Shown here one piece after another: positions 8,625-52,038 of a DNA stretch of 64,000 nucleotides (position 1 is its first letter; each line of letters begins with the position of its first letter). The notes below the pieces were generated by a model. That model worked only from the letters and a program-made list of their open reading frames with translations. It was not told the DNA's origin and did no database searches. The translations under genes and the position numbers were made by a program. The stretch is from Bacteroidota bacterium (GTDB lineage Bacteria; Bacteroidota; Ignavibacteria; UBA10030; SZUA-254), in NCBI GenBank assembly GCA_049515655.1, contig JBEKTW010000007.1:64648-128647 (forward strand), read 5' to 3'.

Positions 8625-8766
8625 AGGAGTTAAGGTTATGAAATGTTGAGATTATGAGAAAATAAGATGTTGAGAAAATTGAGAAATTGAGAGAATTGAG
8701 ATGTTAAGGTTACTTAATGAACCGATTTCTTAGGCCATCTAGTGCCTTGTCTCGGGAATATATTGA

Positions 8767-9222
8767 TTAAGTCTTTCGGCTTTTTACCCTCACCCCCTTC
8801 CCCTCTCCCAAATTTGGGAGAGGGGAATTGAAGGGGAGAGGGTTGCAAATGACATCACGATCCAAGGACTTCTTGAAGCTATTTGAGTGACACGACACTA
8901 GCATGGCGATGATTTCATTTGTCCGGCAGTTCAAAGTCTCGTGAACCTCGGAGCTGATGTAGCCGTTCGAACAAGCAAAATCCGTGCAACCGATACATTC
9001 AAAACCAAACCGAATCGAGTAATCAAGGAACTTGGAGAATTCTTTTCCCGACGAGTTCCTGGCCCTTTCCGCAAGATTCAGCACGATTGAACCTGCTGCA
9101 CGGGTGAACTGATTGGTGAGCCCGAATATTTCTTGTCGCGGGAAACTCCCGGTGACTTTCCTTACAGCCTTAGTAAAATCAAGAGATTTCCGATAAACTT
9201 TTAGTTCCCTAAGTTTGTGCAC
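8767..9222 (-). CDS. four-helix-bundle protein (TIGR02436 / 23S rRNA intervening-sequence protein family), C-terminus read through a palindromic repeat
   Basis: GTG start. Shares the motif NLAE....S.KEFSKFLDYSIRFGFECIGC with the paralog at 10694-11047. The last ~35 aa (..NPLPFNSPLPNLGEGKGVRV..) are encoded by the REP-like element at 8786-8843. Confidence 0.8.
   Translation of the reverse strand: MHKLRELKVYRKSLDFTKAVRKVTGSFPRQEIFGLTNQFTRAAGSIVLNLAERARNSSGKEFSKFLDYSIRFGFECIGCTDFACSNGYISSEVHETLNCRTNEIIAMLVSCHSNSFKKSLDRDVICNPLPFNSPLPNLGEGKGVRVKSRKT
8786..8843. repeat. GC-rich palindromic REP/MITE-like element, copy R1
   Basis: ACCCTCACCCCCTTCCCCTCTCCC-AAATTT-GGGAGAGGGGAATTGAAGGGGAGAGGGT. Near-identical arms recur at 25833-25913. 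Confidence 0.8.
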
Positions 9223-9265
9223 GCTCGCCTGCTTCCTATCTCAACTACTCAACTATCTCGCCCCG

Positions 9266-9460
9266 GCAACTACCAGCCTTTCTCCACATGGCCACTACCT
9301 GTCCATCTCATGATCTCAACCGTGCCATTACCCGTCTATCTCACCGTTGCCACTACCCGCTTATCTCATCATCTCACCTCGGCCACTACCTGTCTTTCTC
9401 ACCATCGCCACTCCCCCCGTATCTTACCCTGCCACTACCCGTCTATCTCAACATCTCAAC
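9266..9460 (-). repeat. degenerate tandem array (~7 units of 24-33 nt, plus-strand unit GCCACTACCYGTCTATCTCA..)
   Basis: Units start at about 9266, 9291, 9324, 9349, 9382, 9407 and 9431. The last unit overlaps the final codons and TAG stop of sucC. Confidence 0.75.
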
Positions 9461-10603
9461 TACTGTCTGGGCTGCATCTTGCAAACTCTTTGCGACTGCA
9501 AAATTCAATCCGGAGCCTGCAAGGATCTCCCGTGCTTCTTTGGCATTCGTTCCTTCGAGCCGGACGACGACGGGGACGTTGACCCGGACGTTCCTCGCCG
9601 CTTCGACGATGCCGTTCGCGACGCGGTCACAACGGACGATGCCGCCAAAGATGTTGACCAGCACCGCTTTCACGTTCTTGTCTGAAAGAATGATCTTGAA
9701 GCCGTTGGAAACGGTTTCCACGTTCGCTCCGCCGCCGACGTCGAGGAAGTTCGCGGGCTCGCCGCCCGCAAGCTTTATGATGTCCATGGTAGCCATAGCA
9801 AGTCCGGCGCCATTGACCATGCACCCGACGTTACCGTCGAGCTTGATGTAATTCAAATTGTACCTTGAGGCCTCGATTTCGAGCGATTCCTCCTCATCGA
9901 GGTCGCGCATCCGGACCATATCGGGATGTCGATAGAGGGCGTTGTCGTCGAAATTCATTTTCGCATCGAGCGCGAGGATCTGGCCCTCCGTGGTCAGGAC
10001 GAGGGGGTTGATCTCCGCGAGTGTGGCGTCGGACTCGTCGTATGCCCGGTAAAGCGCCAGCAAGAATTTGACGGCATTCTTGAAGGCATCGCCGCTGAGA
10101 CCGAGCCCGAAAACCAGTTTTCGCGCCTGGAATTCGCGTAGGCCGATTGTGGGGTTTACCGTTTCCTTGAGAATCAGGTGAGGTGCTTCGGCAGCAACTT
10201 TTTCGATTTCAACCCCGCCTTCCGTCGATGCCATGACCACGTTTTGTGATTTCGCGCGGTCGAGCGTAATCCCCACGTACAGTTCCTTCGCGATCGAGAT
10301 ACCCTGCTCAACAAGCAGCCGCTTGACGATCCTTCCTTCCGGACCCGTTTGATGCGTGACGAGACGCATGCCGAGAATTTGGGACGCAAAGGTCCGGACG
10401 TGTTCCAAGCTCTTCGCGACCTTGACACCACCGCCTTTGCCTCGGCCGCCGGCGTGAATCTGTGCCTTGACGACCCATGCGGTTCCTCCGAGGTTTTCGG
10501 CAATTCTCACTGCTTCCTCCGCTGTGAATGCCGGGCCGCCATTCGGAACTGCCACACCGAAATTCTTTAAGATCTCTTTTGCCTGATACTCGTGGATTTT
10601 CAT
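9443..10603 (-). CDS. sucC: succinyl-CoA synthetase (ADP-forming) beta subunit
   Basis: 386 aa. [18 protein letters not shown]-terminus, ATP-grasp region and C-terminal CoA-ligase domain (GGIVRCD). No sucD is adjacent. Confidence 0.95.
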
Positions 10604-10693
10604 GTCGGGATTTTGAGATAATTAAGATTATGAGATTGTGAGATGTTGAGATTATGAGAAAATTGAGATGGTGAGAAATTTGAGATCATGAGA

Positions 10694-11047
10694 TTACTTC
10701 CTAAGTCGTTTTTGCAAGCCGTCAAGCATCGCGATGATCTCATTGATAGCAGAAACAATTTGATTATATGACTCCTGACTAAGATACTTGTTGGATAACG
10801 CAACATCTGCGCAACCAATGCATTCGAAACCAGAACGAATCGAGTAATCGAGGAACCTGGAGAATTCCTTGTTCGACGTGTTACCCGCTCCTTCAGCGAT
10901 ATTCAGTACGACCGAGTCAGAAGCACGACGAAATTGCACAGTAAGAACAAAGAATTCGTCTTTTGGGAATGACTTTGTCGTTTTCCTTACCAATCCTGTG
11001 AAACTCAAAGCCTTCTGATAAACTATCAGGTCCTTTAGTTTATGCAC
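10694..11047 (-). CDS. four-helix-bundle protein (TIGR02436 / 23S rRNA IVS protein family)
   Basis: 117 aa, GTG start preceded by AGGAGG. Family pattern L.VYQKA..F......T..FP..E...L..Q.RRA..S...NIAEG.G..S.KEF..FL.YS..S..E. Confidence 0.85.
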   Translation of the reverse strand: MHKLKDLIVYQKALSFTGLVRKTTKSFPKDEFFVLTVQFRRASDSVVLNIAEGAGNTSNKEFSRFLDYSIRSGFECIGCADVALSNKYLSQESYNQIVSAINEIIAMLDGLQKRLRK

Positions 11048-11095
11048 GTCCGCCTCCTTCCTTTCTCAACTACTCACCCTAGCAATCTCACATCT

Positions 11096-11292
11096 GCCAC
11101 TATCTGTCTATCTCAACATCTTACCCCGCCACTACCCGCCTTTCTCATCATCTCACCTGCGCCACTACCCGCCTATCTCACCATCTCACCCGCGCCACTA
11201 CCCGCCTATCTCACCATCTCACCCGCGCCACTACCCGCCTATCTCATCATCTTACCCCTGCCACTACCTGTCTTTCTCATCATCTCATCTAC
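11096..11292 (-). repeat. tandem array, 6 units of 32-33 nt (GCCACTACCCGCCTATCTCACCATCTCACCCGC)
   Basis: Units at 11096, 11128, 11161, 11194, 11227 and 11260. Units 11161-11193 and 11194-11226 are identical. Confidence 0.9.
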
Positions 11293-11734
11293 TTTCTTTC
11301 CTTGCCATCGCCTCATCCTGCCACTCGTGTACCAGCTTTATTGCTTCAACATAATCCGGGATCGGGACGAAGACTCTCGCAAGTCTTCCCCGGGCGCCCC
11401 ATACCGGAGCAACAACTTCGAAGCCCGATCCCTTCAGCATGGCAGCTATGGATTCCGCTTCGGCGATGTAGTTTGATTCGTACACTCTGGCAAAGTCTTC
11501 CTGTACCACGACGTCCTGATGCTCGGCACAGAACAACCGTTTATGAATGACGATTGCGCAACTGTCACAGACGAATTTGCGGCAGATGATACAAACTCCT
11601 TCTGCTTCCCGGTCCCGGTGAAAATCGCAAACCGTGAACGGAGCTTGCTCGAACAGCACGCCGCAGTGAGGGCAAAAATCGCTGTCGGTCGATGCTTCCT
11701 CGCCGCAATTTCCGCAATTGTCGACTTCCGGCAT
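11285..11734 (-). CDS. zinc-ribbon protein with C-terminal DUF2007-like domain
   Basis: 149 aa. N-terminal CGNCG..CPHCG and further Cys/His clusters. The C-terminal part (YESNYIAEAESIAAMLKGSGFEVV..VPIPDYVEAIKLV) resembles DUF2007. Confidence 0.6.
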   Translation of the reverse strand: MPEVDNCGNCGEEASTDSDFCPHCGVLFEQAPFTVCDFHRDREAEGVCIICRKFVCDSCAIVIHKRLFCAEHQDVVVQEDFARVYESNYIAEAESIAAMLKGSGFEVVAPVWGARGRLARVFVPIPDYVEAIKLVHEWQDEAMARKESR

Positions 11735-11758
11735 ATGCCAATTGCAGGATGTTCGACC

Positions 11759-13315
11759 CTACTTGATCTTCTCGGCCAGGGATTTAGCCTGCAGGAAAAG
11801 TCCGAGATAGTCCCGGCCGCCGGCTTTTGAATCGGTCCCGCTCATGTTGAAGCCGCCGAAGGGATGCGCGCCGACCATCGCGCCCGTGCACTTGCGGTTG
11901 AGGTACAGATTACCGCAATAGAACTCACGCTTCGCCCGGTCGAGCTTTTTCCGGTTCTTTGAAAACACTGCACCTGTCAAGCCAAACTCGGTGTTGTTGG
12001 CAATTTCAAGCGCATGGTCGAAGTCCTTCGCTTTGATGACGGCAAGAACCGGTCCGAAGATCTCTTCCTGCGCAATCGTTCCTTTGGGGTCGATATCGGC
12101 GATGACGGTCGGACGGAGAAAATAACCCTTTCCTTCTGCCCGCAGGCCGCCTGCAACCAGACGCCCGCCTTCGCGCAGGGCGGTCTCGACATACTGGAGG
12201 ATCTTCTCCATCGAGCTCTTGTTGACGATGGGTCCCATGTAATTCGTTAGAACCTTGGCCGGGCCGACTGTGATGGATTCTGCCCGCTTGACCAGCAAGT
12301 CGACCATCCTGTCGTAAATTTTTTCGTCGATGATTACCCGTGAACACGCGGAACATTTCTGTCCCTGGAACCCGAACGCGGAAACGGTCACGGCAGCCGC
12401 AGCTTCATCAACATTTGTTTCATGGTCGACGATAATGGAATCTTTGCCGCCCATTTCAGCGATGACGCGCTTCAGCCAGATTTGTCCTGGACGGACCTTC
12501 GCCGCCTCTTCGTTGATATGAATGCCGATTTCCTTGGAGCCCGTGAATGCAATGAATCTTGTCTGTGGGTGGGTCACGATCGTATCGCCGACGGCGCCTC
12601 CGGGACCCGCGACGAAATTGATGACTCCAGGCGGAAGTCCGGCTTCTTCCATCACCTCCATGAACTTGTATCCGATGAAGGGAGAATCGCTCGACGGTTT
12701 GAGAACGACCGTATTGCCGGTCACCGCCGCCGCCGTTGTCATGCCGCACAGGATCGCAAGCGGGAAATTCCACGGCGGAATGACCGCTCCCACACCGAGC
12801 GGGATGTAGGCCACCTCGTCCTTTTCGCCCAGAAGCTGGATCGCGGGTTTCTGGTCGGCGTATCGGAGCATTTCGCGGGCGTAGAATTCAAGGAAGTCAA
12901 TCGCCTCGGCAACGTCGGCGTCGGCTTCGGGCCAGGTCTTGCCGACTTCGAGAATCTCCGCCGCGTTCAACTCGAACCGGCGCTTGCGCATGATCTTAGC
13001 GGCCTTGAAGACGTACCCCGCGCGTTTCGCCGGAGGCACCCATTGCCATTCCTCATACTTTTTGAGGGCAACGTCGAGGGCGTGGAGCGCGTCGTCGTCG
13101 GTTCCTTTTTGAAAAACGCCAACAACCTGGTCGGGATCGGAGGGGTTGAGCGAGTTGAACTTAATCTGAGAGGTTACCCGTTCGCCGCCAATGATGCTCG
13201 GGTATTCCCTGCCGAGCACGGCTTCGAGTGTGGCAATTGCGTCTTCCTGTTTTTTTCGATTGGCGAATTTCGACCAATCGGTGTAGGATTCATTTTTGAA
13301 TTTTGAGGTGTTCAT
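11759..13315 (-). CDS. pruA: L-glutamate gamma-semialdehyde (1-pyrroline-5-carboxylate) dehydrogenase
   Basis: 518 aa aldehyde dehydrogenase. Catalytic Cys context FGFQGQKCSACSR, Glu context EMGGKD, EEIFGPVLAV. Size and N-terminus fit PruA/RocA-type enzymes. Confidence 0.85.
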   Translation of the reverse strand: MNTSKFKNESYTDWSKFANRKKQEDAIATLEAVLGREYPSIIGGERVTSQIKFNSLNPSDPDQVVGVFQKGTDDDALHALDVALKKYEEWQWVPPAKRAGYVFKAAKIMRKRRFELNAAEILEVGKTWPEADADVAEAIDFLEFYAREMLRYADQKPAIQLLGEKDEVAYIPLGVGAVIPPWNFPLAILCGMTTAAAVTGNTVVLKPSSDSPFIGYKFMEVMEEAGLPPGVINFVAGPGGAVGDTIVTHPQTRFIAFTGSKEIGIHINEEAAKVRPGQIWLKRVIAEMGGKDSIIVDHETNVDEAAAAVTVSAFGFQGQKCSACSRVIIDEKIYDRMVDLLVKRAESITVGPAKVLTNYMGPIVNKSSMEKILQYVETALREGGRLVAGGLRAEGKGYFLRPTVIADIDPKGTIAQEEIFGPVLAVIKAKDFDHALEIANNTEFGLTGAVFSKNRKKLDRAKREFYCGNLYLNRKCTGAMVGAHPFGGFNMSGTDSKAGGRDYLGLFLQAKSLAEKIK

Positions 13316-13342
13316 AATGATTGACTTTGTCTCAAGTGATAT

Positions 13343-25800: not shown

Positions 25801-25817
25801 GAATAGTAGGGCGATTC

Positions 25818-26204
25818 GTCTTTTGGCTTTTTACCCTCACCCCTTTCCCCTCTCCCGATCCTTCGACTTCGCTCAGGACAGGTTCGGGAGAGGGGAATTG
25901 AAGGGGAGAGGGTTGCGAGTGACGTGAAGATCCAGGAATTTATTCGAACTATTTGAAGGACACGATACTCGTTTCTAAATCCGAATTCGGAAATCTTAAA
26001 TTCCGCCTCTCAGAATCCCGCCGCCCAGCGGAATCCAAAGGCGGGACAAATCCTAAACTCAAAACTCAAACCCCAAACCCTAACACCTATCACCCACCAC
26101 CTATTACCTCCAACCCGAACCCCAACCCCAAACCCTAATATCTATCACCCATCACCTATTATCTGCCACCTAAACCCAAACCCCAAAACTCAAAACTCTA
26201 ACCC
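25818..26204 (-). mobile_element. decayed four-helix-bundle cassette (relic E): REP copy R2, ~60 nt of 4HB 3' end, CCTAAA/CTCAAAAC word flank
   Basis: 25818-25975 aligns at ~80% (by eye) with 8771-8905 of cassette A, apart from a ~29-nt loop insertion in relic E. 26026-26204 is a low-complexity word array that includes two ~56-nt direct repeats. Confidence 0.6.
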
Positions 26205-28185: not shown

Positions 28186-28279
28186 CGGGTTCTGGCTTCC
28201 GTACTGTCCTACGACTCAATTCGTGTATTTTCTCATCATCTCCCAATGCTCATCGTCAGGGTTCGTCGTTCGGCTTTTT

Positions 28280-28421
28280 ACCCTCATCCCTTTCCACTCT
28301 CCCCGTTTCGCCCCGCGGGAGAAGCGGGGCTCAACACCCCTCTCGCGATACTTCGACTTCGCTCAGGACAGGTTCGGGAGAGGGGTCACGGGGTGAGGGT
28401 AACTCAGCAGGCGCCCGTCAC
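28280..28421 (-). repeat. nested palindromic REP/MITE-like element, copy R3
   Basis: Its reverse complement is ~90% identical, outside the hairpin loops, to 56346-56448. Contains the GCCCCGC..GCGGGGC and CCCTCTC..GGGAGAGGGG stems. Confidence 0.85.
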
Positions 28422-36678: not shown

Positions 36679-36857
36679 CGAAGAGGACCTGAATCGGGGG
36701 ATGGCGCATTCTTCATGATCACTTCCAACTGAAAGTCTCACCTGCCGGCAACCCTTAATTGTCTCCAGGCGTTCTTTAACGAGCCTCCTGTCTCGGGAAT
36801 AGATTGATTAACTGACGATACGCAAAACTATTCTCGATGATCGAAGCACAAAATCAT

Positions 36858-37088
36858 AGATAAATCCTAAGCACCAAATTCGAAATCCTAAACAAGCTCA
36901 AAACACTAATTTCGAAACCCTAAACCGTTTTGGCAACGATGCGACGGGAAGTTTTCCACATGTCTCGAAGGACAAAAAGCCCCCCCGGCAGAAGTCCTTG
37001 GCTTGGGGCCTTGCGAACGGGTTTAGGATTTAATGCTTCGAGTTTAGGATTTGCTTAGGATTTAGGAATTCGGATTTAGAATTTATCA
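36858..37088. mobile_element. gene-less long inverted repeat built from AAATCCTAA / TTAGGATTT words (relic F)
   Basis: Left arm 36858-36928 and right arm 37016-37088 are imperfect reverse complements. Shares TTCTAAATCCGAATTC (on its reverse complement) with relic E. Confidence 0.6.
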
Positions 37089-43153: not shown

Positions 43154-44152
43154 ATGTTAAACTACATTTGGCTTGCCCTGATTGTCATCGGGATCTCTGT
43201 TGCCTTCTTCGGAGATGTGCACGATATCTCGACGAATAAGTACCACAATGGAGAAGAATTTCCCGGGAGCATTGATTTCCGGGGCGCTCCCATACCTTTC
43301 CTTGAAAAATCAAACAAGTATACCTGCTATCTTTCGGCAACTTCGGAACACCTTGGAACACAACAACCGTTTGAATCGAATCGGGAATACGTTCTGAAAG
43401 CAGAGCTCCTGCCGAATCTGGCGGACGGCGGGGTCCTCCACATTTTTGCCGACGACTCTTTCCCGGCACTGTGGAGAGAGATCATGAAAGGACAGGGCAG
43501 CACAGAGTATCTTACGGCGACTGCCCGCTGGGATTCCATCGACCATCGTGGGACTAAACTCCCCGTGCAGTTCCGGCTAGACCCGGCTAAGTTCCTGCGG
43601 CTTAACTCGGTCGTCAATGACGGCGTCGTTAAATCGGCAAAGACCGCGGTCGAGCTTTGCATCGGACTCATCGGCATCATGGCGCTGTGGCTCGGCATCA
43701 TGAGGATCGCGGAGCAATCCGGACTCATGGCGAAGATAGCTGGCGCGCTCAAACCTGTCATGAGACGATTATTCCCCGATGTGCCTCCGGAGCATCCGGC
43801 AATGGGCGCGATGATCATGAATATTTCCGCGAACATGCTCGGTCTTTCCAACGCTGCAACACCGTTCGGTCTGAAAGCGATGGAAGAGCTCAACAAACTC
43901 AATGCAAAAGCAGGCACAGCGACCGATGCGATGTGCACGTTTCTCGTCATTAACACGAGCAATGTGCAGCTTGTCCCCACAACGGTCATTGCAATCCGCG
44001 CGGCGGCAGGCTCGGCGAACCCGGCGGAAATCCTGGGCCCGGTTTTGGTTGCGACCTTTGTGTCGCTCGTTGTTGGAGTGACAACGGCCAAGCTCCTGGC
44101 GAAGTTGCCTGTTTACAGGCGGCAGATTGAAAGGACAAAGAATGAGCAATGA
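43154..44152 (+). CDS. nucleoside-recognition (Gate) domain membrane protein, SpmA-like, with a ~125-aa insertion after TM1
   Basis: MLNYIWLALIVIGI.. N-terminus, and ..ELCIGLIGIMALWLGIMRIAEQSGL...LFPDVP..HPA.GAM.MN.SANMLGL.NAATP. Confidence 0.75.
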   Translation: MLNYIWLALIVIGISVAFFGDVHDISTNKYHNGEEFPGSIDFRGAPIPFLEKSNKYTCYLSATSEHLGTQQPFESNREYVLKAELLPNLADGGVLHIFADDSFPALWREIMKGQGSTEYLTATARWDSIDHRGTKLPVQFRLDPAKFLRLNSVVNDGVVKSAKTAVELCIGLIGIMALWLGIMRIAEQSGLMAKIAGALKPVMRRLFPDVPPEHPAMGAMIMNISANMLGLSNAATPFGLKAMEELNKLNAKAGTATDAMCTFLVINTSNVQLVPTTVIAIRAAAGSANPAEILGPVLVATFVSLVVGVTTAKLLAKLPVYRRQIERTKNEQ

Positions 44153-44648
44153 GCGTGGAGCCGTGAGATGTGTGCTAGAACTGGAGAAAGCCGCGGTAGG
44201 CATAAAGACAGGCGGCTATATACGAACAAAACAAACGAATCATCGGGGGGTCCTATGTTCAGATTTGAGAACCTTGAAATTTGGAAAAGATCAATCGAGA
44301 TAACGGATAAAATGTTTGATCTGGCAGATCGACTCGAAGAGATGAAAAGATTTAGGTTTGCGGAACAGCTCCGGGGAACTGCGTTGTCAATCACCAACAA
44401 CATTTCCGAGGGTTCGGGAAGTTCTTCGAGACGTGAATTTCGTCAATTCTTGAATTATTCCCACAGATCAGTTTTTGAAACTGCCAACATCCTGATCGTT
44501 TGCCATCGGCGTAAGTACATCGGCGACAAGGAGCGGGACGATCAGCTACAGCAACTCGAAGAAATTAGCAAAATGGTTACCGGCTTCTCAAAATCACTTT
44601 AGTCTTTGTACCGATACTCAACGCCCATAACTCAAAGCTCATAGCTCC
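44153..44648 (+). mobile_element. four-helix-bundle gene cassette C splitting spmA-like and spmB-like genes
   Basis: Fills the whole spacer. Terminal pairing GGAGCCGTGAG (44157-44167) with CTCATAGCTCC (44638-44648): 9 Watson-Crick pairs, one G.U pair and one mismatch. Confidence 0.6.
44255..44602 (+). CDS. four-helix-bundle protein (TIGR02436 / 23S rRNA IVS protein family)
   Basis: Internal ATG 44255: MFRFENLEIWKRSIEIT..; motif ITNNISEGSGSSSRREFRQFLNYSHRSVFE. Confidence 0.85.
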   Translation: MFRFENLEIWKRSIEITDKMFDLADRLEEMKRFRFAEQLRGTALSITNNISEGSGSSSRREFRQFLNYSHRSVFETANILIVCHRRKYIGDKERDDQLQQLEEISKMVTGFSKSL

Positions 44649-45182
44649 ATGCTCAACGTCATCGAGATACTTTCCATCCTTGCCATTCCCGCGATCATAC
44701 TTTTCGTGGTTCTCTATGGAGCGGCGAGGAAGGTTAGAATCTACGAGGCGTTCGTCGAAGGCGCGAAGGAAGGCTTCAATGTGGGTGTGCGCATCATCCC
44801 GTATCTGGTTGCCATGCTCATTGCAATCGGAATTTTCCGTGCAGGCGGAGCGATGGAAATACTCTCGTCAATTCTATCGCCTATTACCCGCCTCATCGGC
44901 ATGCCTGCCGAGGCGATGCCGATGGCGCTCATCAGGCCGCTCTCGGGAAGCGGGGCTCTCGGTGTGATGTCGGAAACCATCAAGACAAACGGACCCGATT
45001 CGCTCATTGGGAGGATGGTCTCGGTGATGATGGGGAGCAGCGAAACGACGTTTTACGTCCTCGCAGTGTACTTTGGCGCGGCAAGTATTACAAGAACGCG
45101 CCAGGCAGTCCCCGCCGGGATCGTCGCCGACGTTGTTGCCGTTCTCATGTCGGTTTGGCTGGTGAATTTGATTTTTCACTAA
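44649..45182 (+). CDS. nucleoside-recognition domain membrane protein, SpmB-like
   Basis: 177 aa. ..VEGAKEGF.VGVRIIPYLVAMLIAIGIFR..GAM..L; RPLSGSGALGV. Confidence 0.75.
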   Translation: MLNVIEILSILAIPAIILFVVLYGAARKVRIYEAFVEGAKEGFNVGVRIIPYLVAMLIAIGIFRAGGAMEILSSILSPITRLIGMPAEAMPMALIRPLSGSGALGVMSETIKTNGPDSLIGRMVSVMMGSSETTFYVLAVYFGAASITRTRQAVPAGIVADVVAVLMSVWLVNLIFH

Positions 45183-45190
45183 TCCTTGCT

Positions 45191-45219
45191 TGATTTTTAG
45201 GCCGCTCTTGCCTATATTC
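45191..45219 (+). promoter_or_regulatory. sigma70-type promoter of the proline dehydrogenase gene
   Basis: TTGATT (45191-45196), 17-nt spacer, TATATT (45214-45219). Confidence 0.55.
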
Positions 45220-45297
45220 AGCAGACCTATTGTGATCACTGATGACCATTCGAATTCATACAATGACTCTTCACTCTGAAGTACATTCCTTTCCCCT

Positions 45298-46215: not shown

Positions 46216-46244
46216 TCTTTAACGAAACGTAAAAGGAGACTTCA

Positions 46245-48332
46245 ATGGCGGATGTGCAATCCCCGGGTGAGAGTCAAAAATTTCGATCGTTCGTCCCGGC
46301 TGAGACGGACATGAAAGAATTCACGGTTCGGGCACTCCTGATCGGGTTGGTGATGTGCGTGGTGCTTGGTGCCGCAAACGCGTATCTTGGTTTGAAGGCG
46401 GGCATGACAATCGCGGCAACGTATCCGGCTGCGGTCATCGGCATGGCAGTTCTCAAGATGATGAAAGGTTCGCTCCTTGAAGAGAACTTCGCGCGTACTG
46501 TCGGTTCAATCGGAGAGTCGGTTGCCGCGGGTGCGATCTTCACAATACCGGCATTTGTTATCCTAGGGCTCTGGAAGTTTGACCCAGCGAACATGACGAG
46601 AGAATACATGCTTGCAACAGCGTTGATGATCTTAGGTGGTATTCTCGGAATTATGTTCGTCACCATTTTGCGCCGCGTAATGGTTGAGGATGCGTCGCTC
46701 CCCTTCCCCGAATCCGTGGCAGCAAGCTCCATCCACAAAGCCGGCCAGCGCGGTGCCGAGGCAGCGATGCAGCTGTTTCGAGCGATGGGTGTCGGCGCGG
46801 TCGTTAAACTCCTTGCCCGCCAAGATATCGACACCAAGGATGGATTCGGAGTGTTCTTCTACCAAAATGGATTTCAACTGGCAGTGGGGAAAATCAAGGA
46901 AGGCCTCGTTCGCCTCGGTTTAACGAAGGATGCGCATACCATCGATGCAGGCGGCATCACGTCGATCTTCGCGCCCGATGTTACTCCGGCGTACATCGGT
47001 GTCGGTTACATTATTGGTCCGGAGTTAGGCGCGCTGAACTTTGCAGGCGGGCTGCTTGCCTGGGGACTCTTTGTGCCGCTTCTTGTCTTTTTCCTTGGCC
47101 CCCATCTCATCGGTCAGTACACTGCACCCGACGGAACACAAAACTGGGCAGCGCTCACTTCACATATTTATCGGTTCATTGTCCGACCAATCGCAGTCGG
47201 AGGGATGCTCGTTGGTGCCTGTTACACTCTCTGGCGAATGCGGAAAAACCTCGTCCTCGGCATCAAGCGCGGGATTGCCGATGTTCGTAAGGCAGCCACA
47301 GCCGAAACGACTACGGTGCGCACGGAGCATGACCTTTCTTTCAAAGTCGTTCTCCTCGGCATAGCGGTGGTTTTCGTTCTCATGGTGGCCCTCTACTTCT
47401 ATTTCACACAAATGATGAGCGGTGCAATCCTGGCCGCGATTGTCATGCTTGTTACGGGATTCTTCTTTGCAGCCGTTTCGGGAAACCTCGTTGGAATGAT
47501 CGGCTCGTCAAACAACCCGATTTCCGGGCTCACTCTCGCGACGACAATCGTTGCTGCGCTCACGATGGTCATTGTGGGCACAACCGGTATTCAAGGTGTG
47601 GCAGCGGTGCTGGGTGTCGCAGCGGTCGTTTGCGTCTCGTCAGCTGTGGCCGGTGAGATGTTGCAAGACCTGAAAGTCGGGCATATCCTCGGAGGTACTC
47701 CATGGAAAATGCAGGTTGGGGATATTATCGGCGTAGTACTGGCAGGCATGGTCATGTTCTTTCCACTCTATGTCTTGCACAACGCCGACCTGGCGTCAAA
47801 TCCTCAGACGGGTGGGTTTGGAGGCAGAGCTCTCCCCGCGCCGCAGGCCGGACTCATGGCGGCACTTTCGCAAGGGATTGTTGGTGGAGAAATGGCCTGG
47901 CCATTGGTGATAGTTGGGATTGCCCTCGGCGTTTCGCTGATCCTCATTAGAGTGAAAAGCCCCATGCTATTCTCCGTCGGAATGTATCTCCCGCTCGGTA
48001 CGACATTCGCGATTTTCATGGGTGGATTGATTCGCGGTATCGTGGACAAGAGGAAGGCAAAGCGCGGCTTCAACGATGCGCAGAAAGCTCGCGTTGAAAA
48101 TGCTGGTGTGCTCGCCGCCTCCGGGTTCATTGCGGGTGAGGCATTGATGGGTCTTTTGATTGCCGCGGTAGTGTTTTTCACCGGCTCATTCCCATCGCTT
48201 TCGGTGTTTGACCCGTTTGCGGGGTGGATGGCTATACCTGTGTTCGGTTTACTTGCAGTCTATCTCGTGATTGTTCCGATGAGAAAAGCTGGTTCGCCCG
48301 ATGAACCCGCACCTCCCACGGCAATCATGTGA
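46245..48332 (+). CDS. OPT-family oligopeptide transporter
   Basis: 695 aa, about 16 TM. N-terminal FTVRALLIGLVMCVVLGAANAYLGLKAGMT is typical of bacterial OPT proteins. Confidence 0.85.
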   Translation: MADVQSPGESQKFRSFVPAETDMKEFTVRALLIGLVMCVVLGAANAYLGLKAGMTIAATYPAAVIGMAVLKMMKGSLLEENFARTVGSIGESVAAGAIFTIPAFVILGLWKFDPANMTREYMLATALMILGGILGIMFVTILRRVMVEDASLPFPESVAASSIHKAGQRGAEAAMQLFRAMGVGAVVKLLARQDIDTKDGFGVFFYQNGFQLAVGKIKEGLVRLGLTKDAHTIDAGGITSIFAPDVTPAYIGVGYIIGPELGALNFAGGLLAWGLFVPLLVFFLGPHLIGQYTAPDGTQNWAALTSHIYRFIVRPIAVGGMLVGACYTLWRMRKNLVLGIKRGIADVRKAATAETTTVRTEHDLSFKVVLLGIAVVFVLMVALYFYFTQMMSGAILAAIVMLVTGFFFAAVSGNLVGMIGSSNNPISGLTLATTIVAALTMVIVGTTGIQGVAAVLGVAAVVCVSSAVAGEMLQDLKVGHILGGTPWKMQVGDIIGVVLAGMVMFFPLYVLHNADLASNPQTGGFGGRALPAPQAGLMAALSQGIVGGEMAWPLVIVGIALGVSLILIRVKSPMLFSVGMYLPLGTTFAIFMGGLIRGIVDKRKAKRGFNDAQKARVENAGVLAASGFIAGEALMGLLIAAVVFFTGSFPSLSVFDPFAGWMAIPVFGLLAVYLVIVPMRKAGSPDEPAPPTAIM

Positions 48333-48495
48333 AAATGGTGCAGAAGCATGGAAGAGAGTCATCGCTCATCCAAGCTTCCGAGTGAAGCTTGATGTGCAGG
48401 GAAGCTTTGTGTGGAACCATTGCGAAGACTCATGCGCGACGGGTTTTTGATAATTGAAGAAACCGCAAACTAACAAATAGAAAAGGAGAAACATT

Positions 48496-49953
48496 GTGTC
48501 AAGTGCTATTGAAGGATTAAAACCAGAACTCGTGTGGAAATACTTTGCCGAAATTTCCCGCATCCCCCGCGGTTCCAAGAACGAGGCCGCGATATCAAAA
48601 CACATCGTTGAGACGGCGAAGAAACTCGGCCTGCAGGTCAAACAGGATCGCCTGGGGAATGTTGTGGTAAAGAAGCCGGCGTCGCCGGGCAAGCAGCAAG
48701 TCCATCCGATCTGTTTGCAGGGGCATCTCGATATGGTGTGCGAAAAAAATGCCGATAAGATCCACGACTTCACGAAGGATCCCATTGAGCTTGTGCGAAA
48801 AGGAAACTTAATGATGGCGAACGGCACAACGCTTGGGGCCGACAACGGTGTCGCCGTAGCTACGAATCTTGCCATCATGGAAGATAAATCCCTTGAACAT
48901 GGCCCCCTCGAACTGTTATTCACGATTGATGAAGAAACCGGTTTGACGGGCGCCAGCAACCTCGCCCACGATTTTCTCGAAAGCAAAACGCTGATGAATC
49001 TCGACTCCGAGGAAGAAGGAGCTCTCTACGTCGGCTGCTCGGGCGGCAAAGATACCGTGGCGACGTGGAAGGCGGGGTTCGAAAAAGCTCCCGCGCAAAC
49101 GGTGGCTGTCCGGCTGAAAGTCTCCGGGCTGCGGGGCGGACATTCAGGATTGGAGATCGAGAAGGGCCGCGGGAACGCGATAAAGATTATCAACAGGGTT
49201 CTGATAGAGCTTTCCTCTCTCGGTGCGCGGCTTTCGGCTATCGATGGCGGAAATAAACGTAATGCCATCCCGCGCGAGTGTGAGGCAATCCTTTTCATCC
49301 CGAAAAAGAACATCGACGGGGCGAAAAAGGTAGTCGCCCGTTACAACACGACCGTGAGATCGGAATTCGCAACCGTGGAAAAAGATCTTTCCATCGCCAT
49401 GACGGAAGTGTCGGGCGGGAAGAAGGAAAAGGTCGTTAAAAAAGCCATGCAGAAGAAACTTTGTCAGACCATTTCCGCCCTGCCTCACGGTGTCATCAAG
49501 ATGAGCGCGGATATTTCATGGCTGGTGGAGACATCGACGAATGTCGCCGTCATCAACACGACGAAGAACGCCATCGTGCTTGCAACGAGTCAGCGGAGCC
49601 CGGTCGCATCCGAGCTCGACGAGATCGTTCAAACGGTTGCGACTATTTTTGAGCTTGGCGCTGCCGCCGTGGAACAAACCGACGGATATCCCGGCTGGAA
49701 ACCCAATCTCGAGTCGCCTATCCTCAAGCTCGCGATCAACACTTACAAATCCCTCTACGGAAAAGAACCCGAAGTGAAAGCCGTCCACGCCGGACTCGAA
49801 TGCGGCATCATCGGCGAGAGGTTTCCCGGAATAGACATGGTCTCCCTCGGTCCGACGCTCGAGGCCGTGCATTCACCGGAGGAAAAGATTTTCATCGATA
49901 CCGTTGACAAGTTCTGGAAGTACTTGCTGGCGATTTTGAAATCGGTTACATAA
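48496..49953 (+). CDS. pepD: aminoacyl-histidine (Xaa-His) dipeptidase, M20C
   Basis: GTG start with AAGGAG 8 nt upstream. LKPELVWKYFAEISRIPRGS, GHLDMVCEKN, TIDEETGLTGA. Confidence 0.9.
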   Translation: MSSAIEGLKPELVWKYFAEISRIPRGSKNEAAISKHIVETAKKLGLQVKQDRLGNVVVKKPASPGKQQVHPICLQGHLDMVCEKNADKIHDFTKDPIELVRKGNLMMANGTTLGADNGVAVATNLAIMEDKSLEHGPLELLFTIDEETGLTGASNLAHDFLESKTLMNLDSEEEGALYVGCSGGKDTVATWKAGFEKAPAQTVAVRLKVSGLRGGHSGLEIEKGRGNAIKIINRVLIELSSLGARLSAIDGGNKRNAIPRECEAILFIPKKNIDGAKKVVARYNTTVRSEFATVEKDLSIAMTEVSGGKKEKVVKKAMQKKLCQTISALPHGVIKMSADISWLVETSTNVAVINTTKNAIVLATSQRSPVASELDEIVQTVATIFELGAAAVEQTDGYPGWKPNLESPILKLAINTYKSLYGKEPEVKAVHAGLECGIIGERFPGIDMVSLGPTLEAVHSPEEKIFIDTVDKFWKYLLAILKSVT

Positions 49954-49985
49954 CACGTACCCGGATCCCGAAGTAATCTGCTAAC

Positions 49986-50020
49986 GTGCGACGCCGTTTG
50001 CGCGTCGCACTGCTGTTTTT
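49986..50020 (+). terminator. rho-independent terminator after pepD
   Basis: GTGCGACGC / GCGTCGCAC 9-bp stem followed by TGCTGTTTTT. Confidence 0.8.
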
Positions 50021-50167
50021 GTCAATGATGTTGTCTTACATCAGGCATTTTGAACCTTGCCCCCCCGCGAAGACAAGGCAGGTCCCTTTCTTTGCTTCTT
50101 CCCATATTTTTCTCTATTTTGGTTTGTTTTTCAAAAACAGCTGTCTCACCACATAGGTGTCGAACGC

Positions 50168-51463
50168 ATGACTGATCCCAGTATCCAACCTCTCGCAACC
50201 GATCGTCCCACGCCCCCACGCTGGTATCGCTGGCTGGTGCTGATCTTCGTGAGTCTCACGATGTTCGGCAATTATTACGTGTACGATGCCCTGAGTCCGC
50301 TTGCGGATGTGCTGAAGCAGCAACTCGGCTTCAGCGATGAGAATATTGGACTGCTTCAGGCGTTGTACAGCTTTCCGAACATCTTTACCGTTCTGCTCGG
50401 TGGCGTCGTGATCGACCGGATCGGGGTCCGGAAATCCATCTTCATCTTTGGCGTCCTGTGCTTTGTGGGTGCCGTCATCACGGTTCTCACTCCGTCGCTT
50501 TGGGTCATGGGAGCGGGACGTCTGGTGTTCGGCATGGGCGCAGAATCGCTGATTGTTGCCGTGACAACCGCACTTGCCAAATGGTTCAGAGGCAAAGAAC
50601 TGAGCTTCGCGTTCGGAATCAACCTGTTGATCGCACGGGCCGGTTCATTCGCCGCGCTGAACTCCCCGTCATGGGCGAGCTGGGCATTCAAGGACTGGCG
50701 ACTGCCTTTCCTCATAGCGACAGGGATATCGACGCTGTGTGTGGTCGGCGCTGTCATCTACTGGGCGATGGAGGTACGTGCAGAGAAGCAGTACTCGCTT
50801 GGCGAAGCATCGACGGATAAGGTTGTGTTCGCCGACCTTTTTAAGTTTGGCGTTTCCTATTGGTACATTGTCATGTTGTGCATCGTGTTCTACTCGGCGA
50901 TCTTCCCCTTCCAGACATTTGCGGTGAAGTTCTTCATGGAGGCCCATGGTGCCTCGCGCGAGGAAGGCGGTTTCCTGTCGAGTATGCTAACCCTGTTTGC
51001 CATGTTTGCGACACCGCTGTTCGGATTGATGGCCGACAGGTTCGGAAAACGCTCGCTCATGATGATGTTCGGCTCATTCCTTCTCATCCCGGTCTACCTG
51101 ATGATGGCGTATACTCATATGACCCTGTACCTGCCGATGGCAATGATGGGAGTGGCCTTCTCGTTGATCCCTGCTGTGATGTGGCCCTCAGTCGCGTACA
51201 TCGTCGACCAGTCGAAGCTCGGAACTGCCTACGGTTTGATGACGATGATCCAGAACATCGGACTCTTCGGTTTTAATCTTCTGATCGGATGGGCGAATGA
51301 CTACTCCGGCGCAAGCCAGGCAAATCCTGGCGGATACTCGCTCGGCATGTGGATCTTCTCGTGTCTTGGATTTTTCGGAGTGCTCTTCGCTTTTCTCCTG
51401 AGAAGAAATGAAACGGGTCCGCATGCGCACGGATTGGAGACAATCACAACGACGAGCAAGTGA
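50168..51463 (+). CDS. MFS transporter (resembles MFSD1-type dipeptide transporters)
   Basis: Internal ATG 50168. 12 TM. WYRWLVLIFVSLTMFGNYYVYDALSPLADVL...ALYSFPNIF..LLGGVVIDRIG. Confidence 0.75.
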   Translation: MTDPSIQPLATDRPTPPRWYRWLVLIFVSLTMFGNYYVYDALSPLADVLKQQLGFSDENIGLLQALYSFPNIFTVLLGGVVIDRIGVRKSIFIFGVLCFVGAVITVLTPSLWVMGAGRLVFGMGAESLIVAVTTALAKWFRGKELSFAFGINLLIARAGSFAALNSPSWASWAFKDWRLPFLIATGISTLCVVGAVIYWAMEVRAEKQYSLGEASTDKVVFADLFKFGVSYWYIVMLCIVFYSAIFPFQTFAVKFFMEAHGASREEGGFLSSMLTLFAMFATPLFGLMADRFGKRSLMMMFGSFLLIPVYLMMAYTHMTLYLPMAMMGVAFSLIPAVMWPSVAYIVDQSKLGTAYGLMTMIQNIGLFGFNLLIGWANDYSGASQANPGGYSLGMWIFSCLGFFGVLFAFLLRRNETGPHAHGLETITTTSK

Positions 51464-51520
51464 AAGGGTATTTTCGATTTACGAATTGCGATTTACGATT
51501 CTAATAATGTCGGAGGCAGT

Positions 51521-51883
51521 ATGAATGAGGAGGAATTAAAACAACGGTGCAAGGCAATGGCCTTGCGAGTAATCAGACTTGTCATGGCGCTGCCGAAGAA
51601 TAATGTTGGTGCTGTATTGGGCAAACAACTCGCCCGGTCTGCAACATCTGTCGCAGCAAACTATCGGGCGACTTGCAAGGCACGGTCGAAGGCGGATTTC
51701 TTGTCGAAGCTTGGAGTTGTGGAGGAGGAGGCTGACGAGACACAGCTATGGATTGAATTGATTATTGATTCAGGTATAGTGAGAGCATCGCGTGCAGTCA
51801 ATTTGTTGGATGAAGTTAAACAATTGACAGCTATCTTCGCTGCTTCAAGAATCACTGCACGGAAGAACTCCGCGGAATTGTAA
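51521..51883 (+). CDS. four-helix-bundle protein (TIGR02436 family, divergent subgroup)
   Basis: 120 aa. ..LARSATSVAANYRATCKARSKADFLSKLGVVEEEADETQLWIELI. Confidence 0.8.
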   Translation: MNEEELKQRCKAMALRVIRLVMALPKNNVGAVLGKQLARSATSVAANYRATCKARSKADFLSKLGVVEEEADETQLWIELIIDSGIVRASRAVNLLDEVKQLTAIFAASRITARKNSAEL

Positions 51884-51920
51884 ATAGCAAAGCACTTTCA
51901 CGGCGAACGATTTACAATCG

Positions 51921-52031
51921 ACAAAGATTGAAAGTCTCTTGAATGAGGTCTGCCAGCTTACAGCAATAATGGCAGCGTCAAGGATTGCCGCTCGCCGAAA
52001 TCAAGATTCAGGACCAAGAAAACAAGTGTAA
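51921..52031 (+). pseudogene. C-terminal fragment of a second four-helix-bundle gene
   Basis: Translates to TKIESLLNEVCQLTAIMAASRIAARRNQDSGPRKQV*. About 65% identical (by eye) over ~26 aa to the C-terminus of 51521-51883 (NLLDEVKQLTAIFAASRITARKN). No N-terminal part. Confidence 0.7.
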
Positions 52032-52038
52032 CTTGTAA

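Follow-up and report, generated by a model that had tools for sequence, protein, structure and literature searches.

Four-helix-bundle gene cassettes with complementary word-array arms in bacterial operon spacers: candidate mRNA-resident relatives of 23S rRNA intervening sequences

Introduction

Correia/NEMIS elements of Neisseria and ERIC/IRU elements of enterobacteria are promoter-less, transposase-less palindromic insertions found in transcribed spacers, where they are co-transcribed with operons and where, as RNA hairpins, they serve as substrates of RNase III or determine stability. To our knowledge these elements carry no ORF, and their sequences are conserved family-wide. A protein gene is present in the intervening sequences (IVSs) of 23S rRNA from Leptospira, Coxiella, Xanthomonas and Brucella, which harbor the S23p ORF. 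In the Coxiella IVS this ORF is enclosed in a 28-bp terminal stem of inverted repeats, tandem GACAGAT heptamers lie ahead of its start codon, and RNase III cuts have been mapped in the stem (PMC4990558). Avd, the accessory protein of diversity-generating retroelements (DGRs), belongs to the same fold family. It forms a pentameric basic barrel and binds stem-loops of RNA in DGRs (bioRxiv 10.1101/2023.10.23.563531); in DGR RNA, too, an upstream and a downstream stretch pair around the core. Finally, intergenic heptamer arrays (the cyanobacterial STRR; TAACTGA of Beggiatoaceae, Cyanobacteria and Bacteroidetes) are genome-dispersed tandem 7-nt words that often end just ahead of a start codon (PMC4679880).

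Here we analyse a 64,000-nucleotide stretch of a Bacteroidota genome (the window), in which an initial annotation had proposed that small four-helix-bundle (4HB) genes bracketed by repeated words occupy operon spacers in the manner of rRNA IVSs.

Results

Four intact 4HB genes in co-oriented operon spacers

The four intact TIGR02436-like genes that had been proposed, A to D, are all members of the family, since in profile searches they passed the curated cut-offs of both TIGR02436 (72.7–94.1 bits versus 24) and PF05635 (56–102 bits versus 33.8). Gene A (8767-9222, minus strand) encodes 151 aa, of which residues 5-111 form the domain; it owes this length to the GGGAGAGGGG hairpin repeat inserted in its 3' end, through which the C-terminal tail reads. 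Gene B (10694-11047, minus strand, 117 aa) scored 94.1 bits with TIGR02436 and 102.3 bits with PF05635, and matched PDB 2GSC with an E value of 2e-9. Gene C (44255-44602, plus strand, 115 aa) lies between two Gate-domain (SpmA/SpmB-like) genes, and gene D (51521-51883, plus strand, 120 aa) between MFS and DUF2203 genes. The A and B proteins are 59% identical, within the 55-60% estimated by eye. The DivGenRetAVD model gave 22.9 bits on gene B, well below its cut-off of 80, and no match to A, C or D. Pentameric rings are seen in structures of family members (XCC0516, as cited in PMC4990558, and PDB matches).

Each cassette is compact, consisting of a 5' arm, a Shine-Dalgarno site, the ORF and a 3' arm, and is wedged in a spacer whose two flanking genes have its own orientation, so that the same-strand placement described for the intact copies holds for all four. 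Pfam recovered the named neighbors sucC, tpiA, the two Gate-domain proteins, MFS and DUF2203, but the gene labelled DUF2007 had no Pfam match at 1e-5. As had been claimed, the cassettes seem to have no promoter of their own: a flank scan found neither a sigma-70-like promoter nor a terminator in the cassette flanks. No reverse transcriptase was found among the neighbors and no template/variable repeat pair; likewise no transposase or recombinase was present and no target duplication was recognisable.

Arms of the cassettes

The 5' arm of cassette B (11048-11284, minus strand) is a tandem array of about six 33-nt units (coding strand, GTGAGATGGTGAGATAGGCGGGTAGTGGCGCGG; TRF period 33, 6.2 copies, 85% matches). 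It starts at the stop codon of the gene before it (11285-11734) and closes with AGGAGG 6 nt ahead of the GTG start. The 3' arm (10604-10693, minus strand), which reaches to 12 nt ahead of the sucC ATG, carries ATCTCA words on the coding strand (TRF periods 8/17/25) and contains a 15-nt stretch with 93% complementarity to the 5' arm. The two arms are very asymmetric (237 versus 90 nt). Both the MFE and the centroid predicted folds pair them with each other. In cassette A, the 5' arm (9223-9442, minus strand) lies between the sucC stop and the gene A start and contains TRF-detected 25/33-nt units that share the GAGAT..GGTAGTGGC family with those of B. This motif occurs 11 times in the window, always in the A and B 5' arms, with 0 copies expected, and direct-repeat families D1 and D2 cover both arms. 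The 3' arm of A (8625-8716, minus strand; TRF 8649-8701), with ATCTCA/TTCTCA words on the coding strand, stops 14 nt ahead of the tpiA ATG, shows 93% inverted matches to 9306-9320 and 9445-9458, and is 71% identical to the B 3' arm over 96 nt (family D4).

Cassette C has a short 5' arm of GAGC/GAGCC words (44140-44170, plus strand) that overlaps the upstream Gate-domain gene in its final codons and stop, and a 3' arm of CTCA/GCTC words (44603-44648, plus strand; TRF 44616-44655, period 7/14) that ends at the downstream gene's start codon. Its own arm, with an inverted score of 10.5, ranked 2 of 80 candidate partners. The GAGC/GCTC word family was also found around the C homologues L171-L177, and the slot is likewise filled in L173 and L174. 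The 5' arm of cassette D (51470-51500, plus strand) is made of CGATTTACGA words (TRF period 7, 4.4 copies), and its ortholog L253 carries CGATTTACAACTTGCAATTTACAATT at this position. Gene D is followed by the remnant of a second D-type copy (51908-52031, plus strand), in which one 5'-arm word (CGATTTACAATCG) precedes a C-terminal gene fragment. The latter, correctly recognized in the initial annotation, gave no HMM match, but its segment 51912-52001 (translation ..LLNEVCQLTAIMAASRIAARRN..) is 57% identical to D residues 87-116 (tblastn, E 1.5e-5). The word that closes the 3' arm in the D slot (AACTTGTAAATG, 52030-52041, plus strand) overlaps the DUF2203 start codon; the same TTGTAAATG overlap is found in L253 and L259, two orthologs that have full inverted arms.

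The flanks had been described as reverse complements at A, B, C and element F (see below). Compared with shuffled sequences, this is significant for B (duplex z -3.8, reached by 0/100 shuffles) and for F (z -4.8), whereas for A it is seen only locally (alignment score 12.5, just above the 99th percentile of shuffles; duplex z -1.2, reached by 13/100), and C is marginal (duplex z -0.8, local score 10.5). No complementarity above shuffles was found for the D flanks, where only the last word of the 3' arm is present; none had been claimed at that site. Judged singly, A, C and D make weak cases.

Relics and other repeats

Relic E (25815-26196, minus strand) combines a hairpin repeat, an A-like gene end and a one-sided word array (26049-26196). 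The relic reported at 25818-26204 is a genuine remnant: 25864-25968 (minus strand) matches A residues 109-143 with 66% identity (E 7e-8), so that some 15 terminal codons of an A-like 4HB gene survive, and 87 nt are 82% identical to 8813-8899 (family D5). Element F (36858-37088, no strand assigned) sits between convergent genes and has CCTAAA-word and TTTAGG-word arms around an ORF-less loop of about 65-90 nt. Its inverted word hairpin is real (13 nt at 100%, 24-26 nt at 71-81%), but no 4HB remnant was detectable by tblastn (E 0.16), which leaves the label of relic unproven. An F-like element occurs in the spacer between the DUF2007-like gene and sucC in L001.

The GC-rich, REP-like hairpin repeat inside the gene A 3' end (8776-8850, no strand assigned; CCCCTCTCCC..GGGAGAGGGG), a 15-nt perfect palindrome, has further copies at 25815-25925, 28262-28400 and 56360-56440 and lies outside the cassette proper. 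The 27-nt motif said to recur does so, its 23-nt core being found exactly twice with 0 expected, and all strings quoted in the initial annotation are where it had placed them. The intergenic word arrays detected by TRF in the window lie at the six sites described above, apart from one short array at 7681-7705.

Complementary arms are a property of the 4HB locus family

We then considered 215 homologous loci, seeded from window proteins B, C and D, and counted as passing those whose inverted flank alignment exceeded the 99th percentile of shuffles. The predicted enrichment of inverted repeats near related genes was clear: 144/215 loci had complementary flanks (51/76 B-type, 44/76 C-type and 49/63 D-type) compared with 1/448 shifted-window controls (0/240 and 1/208), these loci being partly non-independent because the seeds are the window's own proteins and many loci share one slot. 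Outside the tpiA/sucC slots, 31/50 loci passed. Direct-repeat scores passed in just 4/80, 8/76 and 8/63 loci. Complementary flanks were also found in isolate genomes, among them Fibrisoma, Roseibacillus, Flavobacterium silvisoli and Patiriisocius.

The arm words, with a period of 7-8 nt, vary between loci and match between both arms within a locus; upstream of tpiA, sucC or ftsZ, for example, they are GAGTA, GAGCC, GAGTCGTG, GAGAT or GCAGAT. When 80 candidate partners were compared, a locus's own 3' arm took first rank in 18 loci and fell within the top 10% in 54/80 (p about 1e-17). The first of the two arms is the G-rich one in 99 loci versus 12 (D set, 34 versus 8; controls, 33 versus 56). 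The duplexes are imperfect, with about 80% Watson-Crick pairs in the best local alignments, and in some loci, such as L136, the terminal part of the upstream ORF contains the 5' arm, meaning that ribosomes would melt the stem. Word arrays of the cassette modules also occur solo, devoid of a 4HB gene, as dispersed arrays of about 500 nt in the genome of a close relative (L003-L010). Altogether, arm complementarity is real and is a general property of the 4HB-locus family.

Slots are conserved while copies turn over

The bias towards co-orientation extends beyond the window: 119/139 loci (about 86%) match both neighbors, with a median gap of 64 nt between the upstream stop and the 4HB start. Conserved operon junctions are occupied, among them gatB or sucC/tpiA, aldh/sucC, ftsA/ftsZ, spmA/spmB and MFS/DUF2203, and about 26 loci lie upstream of tpiA or sucC. 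Many copies keep to one slot from genus to genus, which marks them as residents of long standing and not as recent arrivals. Empty sites, whose existence in relatives had been anticipated, do exist: in L011 sucC and tpiA are separated by 53 bp, and in L001 slot B has been remodelled, the gene and 5' arm being gone and the 3' arm kept.

Across homologous loci, including same-slot copies, the ORFs share 55-76% amino-acid identity with dN/dS values of 0.10-0.19 (0.10 for gene B and 0.19 for gene A against their L099 copies). This purifying selection does not support the idea that conservation and propagation reside in the flanks and not in the ORF: the protein is conserved, whereas the arm words change between genomes and only their match within a locus is kept. 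For the same-slot copies of the window and L099, dS is 1.34, versus 0.64-0.73 for sucC and tpiA, and this excess suggests replacement. Thus, the slots are long conserved, yet copies are lost, remodelled or replaced.

Discussion

We lean, with somewhat better than even confidence, towards the view that cassettes A-D belong to a widespread class of rRNA-IVS-type elements resident in mRNA, whose arms would pair in the transcript and would probably be cut by RNase III. By analogy, the operon-spacer cassettes are best read as elements of one kind with the ORF-bearing 23S rRNA IVSs, and the parallel drawn in the initial annotation extends to the inverted repeats and heptamers of Coxiella: in both cases a homologous PF05635 ORF occupies the loop of a stem (predicted for the cassettes) with complementary termini, tandem heptamers lie by the ORF start, no transposase is present and the element is transcribed within a host RNA (by presumed read-through for the cassettes). 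RNase III cuts in the stem are known for the rRNA elements (PMC4990558); cleavage of the window cassettes would follow the same pattern. The host RNA differs, being a polycistronic mRNA spacer instead of helix 9, 25 or 45 of 23S rRNA; so do the arms, which are long degenerate word arrays (30-240 nt) as opposed to a 28-bp near-perfect stem, and the ORF, which has a strong SD and a dN/dS of 0.1-0.2, whereas that of Coxiella is decaying and probably untranslated. In the literature we found no published description of mRNA-resident IVS-like cassettes. Avd shares the fold and DGR RNA the pairing around a core, but gene B falls below the DivGenRetAVD cut-off and the cassettes lack the reverse transcriptase and template/variable repeats of DGRs. 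Element F is, among the window elements, the one most resembling Correia/NEMIS and ERIC/IRU, from which the cassettes differ by the conserved protein gene in the loop and the locus-specific arm sequence.

The arms could instead act at the DNA level, as terminal inverted repeats (TIRs) or as ends that form hairpins in a non-autonomous cassette that moves or recombines (MITE- or composite-like), or their complementarity could be kept by gene conversion between inverted repeats, RNA pairing then being incidental. We regard this as unlikely, but it is the alternative to which two sense-RNA signature tests lend weight: G.U-compatible mismatches in the arms were not in excess (177 G.U-type versus 195 A.C-type), and sense and antisense arm duplexes did not differ in energy (-41.9 versus -42.4 kcal/mol, n = 126, p = 0.7), so that nothing here favors sense RNA over DNA. 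The empty L011 site, the lone 3' arm in L001 slot B, the truncated copy beside D, relic E, the high dS that suggests replacement, the arm units common to A and B despite 59% protein identity and the dispersed word modules of the relative also fit such ends. However, neither a transposase or recombinase nor a recognisable target duplication accompanies the cassettes, and a TIR recognised by a protein would be conserved, whereas the arm sequence varies among copies. If the inverted arms recombined, the ORF would be flipped, yet co-orientation holds for 86% of the copies; this bias, the close packing against stop and start codons and the G-rich-first polarity suit a transcribed and translated context, not a symmetric DNA hairpin.

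The regular 7-8-nt period of the words, often repeated 4-10 times, the purifying selection on the 4HB protein, the pentameric rings cited for XCC0516 and the binding of RNA stems by Avd would all be in keeping with the words being multivalent RNA or DNA sites for a pentameric 4HB protein (autoregulation or RNP assembly, TRAP/CsrA-like), with arm complementarity secondary. This seems rather improbable to us, as loci with proteins 60-75% identical have widely different words, and the words of the two arms, being complementary and not identical, would provide a single-strand site on one arm only. Such binding is compatible with the IVS-type reading if the ligand is the duplex. It is very improbable that the arrays are generic intergenic heptamer repeats of the lineage (STRR- or TAACTGA-like) with a role of their own, for example in downstream translation initiation, that share spacers with 4HB genes by chance. 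Arrays lacking a 4HB gene do exist, as in L003-L010, where the solo arrays fit this type, and in relic E, and published arrays end 1 nt ahead of start codons (PMC4679880), like many 3' arms here; but those are direct repeats in one orientation with no reported partner array or link to PF05635, while ours are complementary pairs around a PF05635 gene. Their frequency at 4HB loci relative to control windows, their locus-specific partner arm and the near restriction of TRF intergenic arrays in the window to the six sites, save the short one at 7681-7705, all argue against chance.

If the cassettes are IVS-type elements in mRNA, as we favor, they would be transcribed by read-through from the operon, as befits a cassette with no promoter of its own, and in the transcript the arms would zip up as a long, imperfect duplex that leaves the ORF in its loop. 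This duplex would probably be an RNase III substrate, by analogy with the rRNA IVSs, and may be acted on by the pentameric 4HB protein, which is related to Avd, a binder of RNA stems. Cleavage, or the mere stem, would set the 4HB message apart and leave the host cistrons functional, and an insertion of about 0.5 kb would thereby be tolerable to the host operon.

Four-helix-bundle genes at operon junctions

The window derives from a JGI metagenome contig (sample 3300038425); the most closely related genome is an Ignavibacteriota MAG whose SucC is 95% identical. The initial annotation had proposed four intact TIGR02436-like genes, and profile searches agreed: A (8767-9222, minus strand), B (10694-11047, minus), C (44255-44602, plus) and D (51521-51883, plus) all score above the curated cut-offs of TIGR02436 (72.7-94.1 bits, cut-off 24) and PF05635 (56.4-102.3 bits, cut-off 33.8). 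In alignments, the amino-acid identity to B is 59% for A, 28% for C and 15% for D. Similarity to solved members of this four-helix-bundle (4HB) family, judged from sequence, extends to the pentameric protein XCC0516 (PDB 2GSC), matched by B with an E-value of 2e-9, and to 2RLD (1.6e-4). The family motif R-x3-S-x3-N-x2-E, quoted as GxxRxxxSxxxNxxE (PMC3936711), is present in the aligned A (RAAGSIVLNLAE), B (RASDSVVLNIAE) and C (RGTALSITNNISE) proteins; in D (RSATSVAANYRA) the final E is substituted, and the leading G is missing from all four. The gene calls stored for the source contig include A but have none for B (L251 1340-2022, the region of window 10604-11284), although B outscores all other family members of the window.

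Every gene is co-oriented with its neighbours: B lies between a hypothetical gene (149 aa) and sucC, A between sucC and tpiA, C between two Gate-domain genes and D between an MFS gene and a DUF2203 gene. The GTG starts of A and B follow AGGAGG or GGAAGCAGG by a few bases, and on the coding strand the flanks of A-D contain no sigma-70-type promoter or intrinsic terminator recognisable by a consensus that may not suit this phylum. A C-terminal gene fragment had also been claimed downstream of D, and indeed, within a remnant at 51908-52031, positions 51912-52001 match the D C-terminus (E 1.5e-5); the 36-aa fragment gave no match in the HMM search.

Word arms and relics in the window

About six 33-nt units (GTGAGATGGTGAGATAGGCGGGTAGTGGCGCGG) stand ahead of B on its coding strand, and behind it an array of ATCTCA words extends up to 12 nt before the sucC start. 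A carries the same two kinds of arm, and all the repeat strings quoted in the initial annotation were found where it had placed them. The flanks of several copies had been described as reverse complements of each other. When compared with mononucleotide shuffles, a conservative control since the arms are complementary in base composition, this held for the B 5'/3' arm duplex (z -3.8) and for F, an ORF-less word hairpin at 36858-37088 (z -4.8). The A arm duplex failed the control (z -1.2) and showed only local 14-15-nt matches, 93% complementary; the C flanks were marginal, and D had direct rather than inverted repeats, with only the last 3' word remaining. When the whole B cassette (5' arm, Shine-Dalgarno site, ORF and 3' arm) was folded, both the minimum-energy and the centroid structure paired the arms and left the ORF in the loop.

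Two gene-less relics had been reported as well, one of which stands. Relic E (25815-26196) combines a one-sided word array and a dispersed GC-rich hairpin repeat with the end of an A-like gene, its last ~15 codons (E 7e-8); we rejected the idea that it is a mere copy of the hairpin repeat, since 50 nt that it has in common with the 3' coding end of A are missing from the other hairpin copies. In F, a clean hairpin built of words, no 4HB remnant was detectable. The hairpin repeat itself (..ACCCTCACCCC..CCCCTCTCCC-loop-GGGAGAGGGG..) is dispersed in at least four copies (8776-8850, 25815-25925, 28262-28400 and 56360-56440), is REP-like in appearance and lacks, whichever way it is read, the T-run of a terminator. 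The copy in the 3' end of A gives that protein a 34-aa foreign tail, and translation of the repeat yields spurious peptide matches. TRF placed intergenic word arrays at six sites, those of A to F, the sole other intergenic array of the window being a short one at 7681-7705, and direct repeats of at least 30 nt were confined to the arms, the E array and the hairpin repeat. An exact 23-nt motif, TGTCTCGGGAATA[T/G]ATTGATTAA, adjoins both cassette A (8748-8770) and hairpin F (36789-36811), two occurrences where none was expected; it was found in no genome but this one and a near-identical strain (L251, L252), the 95%-related MAG being among those without it.

Complementary arms are found across related loci

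Using the single proteins B, C and D as seeds, we gathered 80 loci each for B and C from the same collection of species-representative genomes and 80 for D from metagenome contigs. At each locus the 150 nt upstream of the gene were aligned to the reverse complement of the 150 nt downstream, with the 99th percentile of shuffled flanks (score 12) as threshold. Inverted flanks exceeded it in 51/76 B-type, 44/76 C-type and 49/63 D-type loci, or 144/215 over all related sets, compared with direct flanks in 4/80 (a set that includes the four window copies), 8/76 and 8/63, respectively. In shifted windows at the same loci, in which direct flanks were not scored, the inverted counts fell to 0/240 and 1/208. 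Short complementary words could be discerned by eye in many of the sub-threshold loci. The operon cassettes noticed in the window are confirmed and extend well beyond it, to Ignavibacteriota, Bacteroidota, Chloroflexota, Nitrospirota, Planctomycetota, Verrucomicrobiota, Patescibacteria and others. The carriers include isolates, and an assembly artefact was rejected on finding the same layout in isolate and complete genomes.

The arm words have a period of 7-8 nt and vary between loci, with pairs such as GAGTA/TACTC, GAGCC/GGCTC, GAGTCGTG/CACGACTC, GAGAT/ATCTC, GCAGAT/ATCTGC, CAGTAGT/ACTACTG and ATTTACAATT/AATTGTAAAT. When each 5' arm was confronted with 80 candidate partners, its own 3' arm was the best in 18 loci and in the top tenth in 54/80; it is therefore complementarity, not sequence, that is kept. 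Homologues of C carry GAGC/GCTC words, two of them in the same spmA|spmB slot, that is, the same cassette-holding junction. Where orthologs of D occupy the MFS|DUF2203 slot, the inverted arms are complete and their last word overlaps the DUF2203 start codon, exactly as at 52030-52041 in the window. The window D slot can therefore be read as a 5' arm, the ORF, the remnant of a second copy and the last 3' word, and C and D, weak in the window, are nonetheless consistent with their subfamilies.

Slots are conserved and their contents turn over

Both neighbours were co-oriented with the 4HB gene in 119/139 loci, and the 4HB start lay a median of 64 nt beyond the upstream stop codon. Slots are conserved across genera: in about 26 Ignavibacteriota loci the gene immediately precedes tpiA (with gatB or sucC before it) or sucC (with an aldehyde dehydrogenase gene before it). 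Six further Ignavibacteriota loci (L111, L122, L123, L124, L132 and L153) have a 4HB gene with complementary word arms between ftsA and ftsZ, a second conserved slot in an essential operon. In two Cytophagia-like genomes the cassette occupies the interdomain linker of metH (L136 2393-2945; L144 2390-2900), which is thereby split into two ORFs. The upstream ORF ends in ..GGCCGTTPxHI..PR.., from the homocysteine-binding domain, the downstream one begins with ..LKLSGLE.., from the pterin-binding domain, and in L136 translation of the first half runs on into the 5' arm, which forms its tail. In a WOR-3 genome (L210 ~2960-3050), the sequence directly downstream of the 4HB gene resembles by eye the start of a tRNA and not a protein gene; if the tRNA were confirmed, the element would also use stable-RNA transcription units outside rRNA.

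Comparison of orthologous spacers, which the initial annotation had proposed as a search for empty sites, brought to light one empty and one remodelled locus. In L011, sucC and tpiA are separated by 53 bp with neither cassette nor words; in L001, gene B and its 5' arm are missing, the 3' arm is kept beside sucC and an F-type hairpin replaces the rest. The same annotation took the flanks to be the conserved, propagating part, which the comparison does not support: it is the protein that is conserved, purifying selection acting on the ORFs with a dN/dS of 0.10-0.19, and the words of the two arms change in concert. Between the same-slot copies of the window and of L099, dS reached 1.34, as against 0.64-0.73 for the adjoining sucC and tpiA, and the L099 copy is nearer to B than to A, which together suggest replacement or exchange between copies. 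This copy in the sucC|tpiA slot of the closest relative (L099 / L001 2006-2354) has a 4HB frame of 101 codons with the last 14 residues in another frame, and is either a frameshifted pseudogene or the product of an indel error in a long-read assembly. Double-length members of 246-299 aa with two matched stretches each (P0021, P0032, P0038, P0057, P0061 and others) suggest tandem cassettes fused into one ORF, to be compared with the tandem of D and the fragment in the window.

Relation to known elements

Known rRNA intervening sequences (IVSs) are inserted in a helix of 23S (or 16S) rRNA, whereas the cassettes described here have sucC, tpiA, Gate-domain, MFS and DUF2203 genes for neighbours. 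Rfam, at the gathering threshold, found no rRNA or other RNA family in the whole window, and the cassettes are therefore not rRNA IVSs in the strict sense. Of the elements known, the ORF-bearing 23S rRNA IVS is the nearest by homology, and by analogy it is also the rRNA IVS that the cassettes would most resemble in their working. Complementary termini of the IVS kind occur in B, locally in A, marginally in C and as the last word in D, and in those 144 of 215 related loci. Hairpin repeats such as Correia/NEMIS or ERIC, which the cassettes resemble, are co-transcribed and cut by RNase III. The Coxiella IVS holds an S23p ORF inside a stem of terminal inverted repeats, with three tandem GACAGAT heptamers before the start codon, and RNase III cleavage has been mapped in the stem, at the first heptamer (PMC4990558). 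Avd, a relative of the 4HB proteins, binds RNA stem-loops (bioRxiv 10.1101/2023.10.23.563531). Membership in a DGR was rejected in view of the neighbours, which are housekeeping genes with no reverse transcriptase among them, and of a DivGenRetAVD score of 22.9 bits, obtained for B only (cut-off 80), and the direct repeats of at least 30 nt in the window include no template/variable repeat pair.

Word arrays also occur without a 4HB gene. In a close relative, an Ignavibacteriota MAG (MFD01476.bin.1.124; L003-L010), spacers contain composite arrays of about 500 nt (for example L004 620-1133, L007 1470-2003 and L005 5480-5760), in varied orientation to the neighbouring genes and with a recurring order of modules: GTTCTTGGTTGTCAG.., GGTCATTGGTCACTG.., GGCTTTTAGCTGTTGGC.., AATTAAAAATGAAAAA.., the 33-nt GAGAT/GGTAGTGGC unit, CTAACTATC.. 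and CACCTAACACCTAC... These arrays form a dispersed repeat family whose modules are common to the arms of A, B and E, so that the arms draw on, or feed, a genome-wide repeat pool. Cyanobacteria, Beggiatoaceae and Bacteroidetes are known to have intergenic arrays of tandem heptamers, which keep to one orientation and often abut a start codon (PMC4679880). The arms are likewise tandem words of period 7-8 nt, and 3' arms reach 0-25 nt before the next start codon; STRR/TAACTGA-type arrays, however, were described without complementary pairs or a link to PF05635 (PMC4679880), whereas the arms here are paired around such a gene.

Family members have been reported between cmr3 and cmr2, where they were read as Cas-associated (PMC3936711), and in a gmk|4HB|nadD arrangement with gaps of ~35 nt in Flavobacterium columnare, read as a phage gene (PMC5524665). 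Both cases fit an operon-spacer placement by position. Full-text searches, over a literature mostly outside the subscription journals, found no description of the cassette architecture. The proposal of an IVS-like mRNA cassette is upheld in its architecture, its embedding in operons and its IVS analogy, though not in having the flanks as the propagating unit. By that analogy, the cassettes would be IVS-type elements that reside in mRNA and whose word arms are specific to the locus.

Do the arms act in RNA or in DNA?

Three features speak for a role in the transcript: the cassettes fit closely to stop and start codons, they are co-oriented with their neighbours, and their arms have a marked polarity, the G-rich one leading in 99 loci against 12, and in 34 against 8 of the D set, compared with 33 against 56 in controls. 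By analogy with rRNA IVSs, we infer that the cassettes may be excised from mRNA by RNase III. A serious rival is that the arms work at the DNA level, as a hairpin or terminal inverted repeat (TIR), or are homogenised by gene conversion. Two tests for a sense-RNA signature came out flat and leave this rival standing: G.U-compatible mismatches in the arms were no commoner than A.C (177 vs 195), and sense and antisense arm duplexes were equally stable. These tests may lack power, since each arm has many redundant words and selection on single positions could be correspondingly weak. Set against the conserved terminal repeats, target duplication and transposase of a MITE or IS, A and B have common arm units and those of C and D differ; no transposase lies within or beside any of the four cassettes, and no target duplication was recognisable against the empty L011 site, which is too diverged to align.

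Implications for the PF05635 family

To our knowledge, PF05635/TIGR02436 is a very large family without an established function, whose only established contexts are a handful of rRNA IVSs and the Avd of DGRs. One sequence search matched more than 8,000 family clusters at 50% identity, so the cassette rule would cover a very large set of unexplained genes. It is possible, though we rather doubt it, that the whole family marks pan-bacterial RNA-level intervening sequences for any transcribed junction, with processed arms, a duplex-acting protein and concerted arm evolution. The junctions would be rRNA helices, operon spacers (ftsA|ftsZ, gatB|tpiA), cas operons and the metH interdomain linker. 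Insertions there would be tolerated because their word arms, complementary to each other, would pair and undergo processing in the transcribed RNA; the 4HB protein would act on the arm duplex, and the concerted evolution of the arms would explain part of the heptamer arrays in Cyanobacteria, Bacteroidota and relatives.

If most members proved to be cargo of operon cassettes with complementary word arms, the family would gain a testable biology, with RNase III processing, insulation or coupling of cistrons, and action of the protein on its own flanking duplex as candidate roles. Such a result would change how annotations are read, suggesting that the cmr3/cmr2 and gmk/nadD genes are operon passengers, and would connect two long-standing puzzles: how ORF-bearing rRNA IVSs originated, and the tandem repetition of short words in bacterial spacers.
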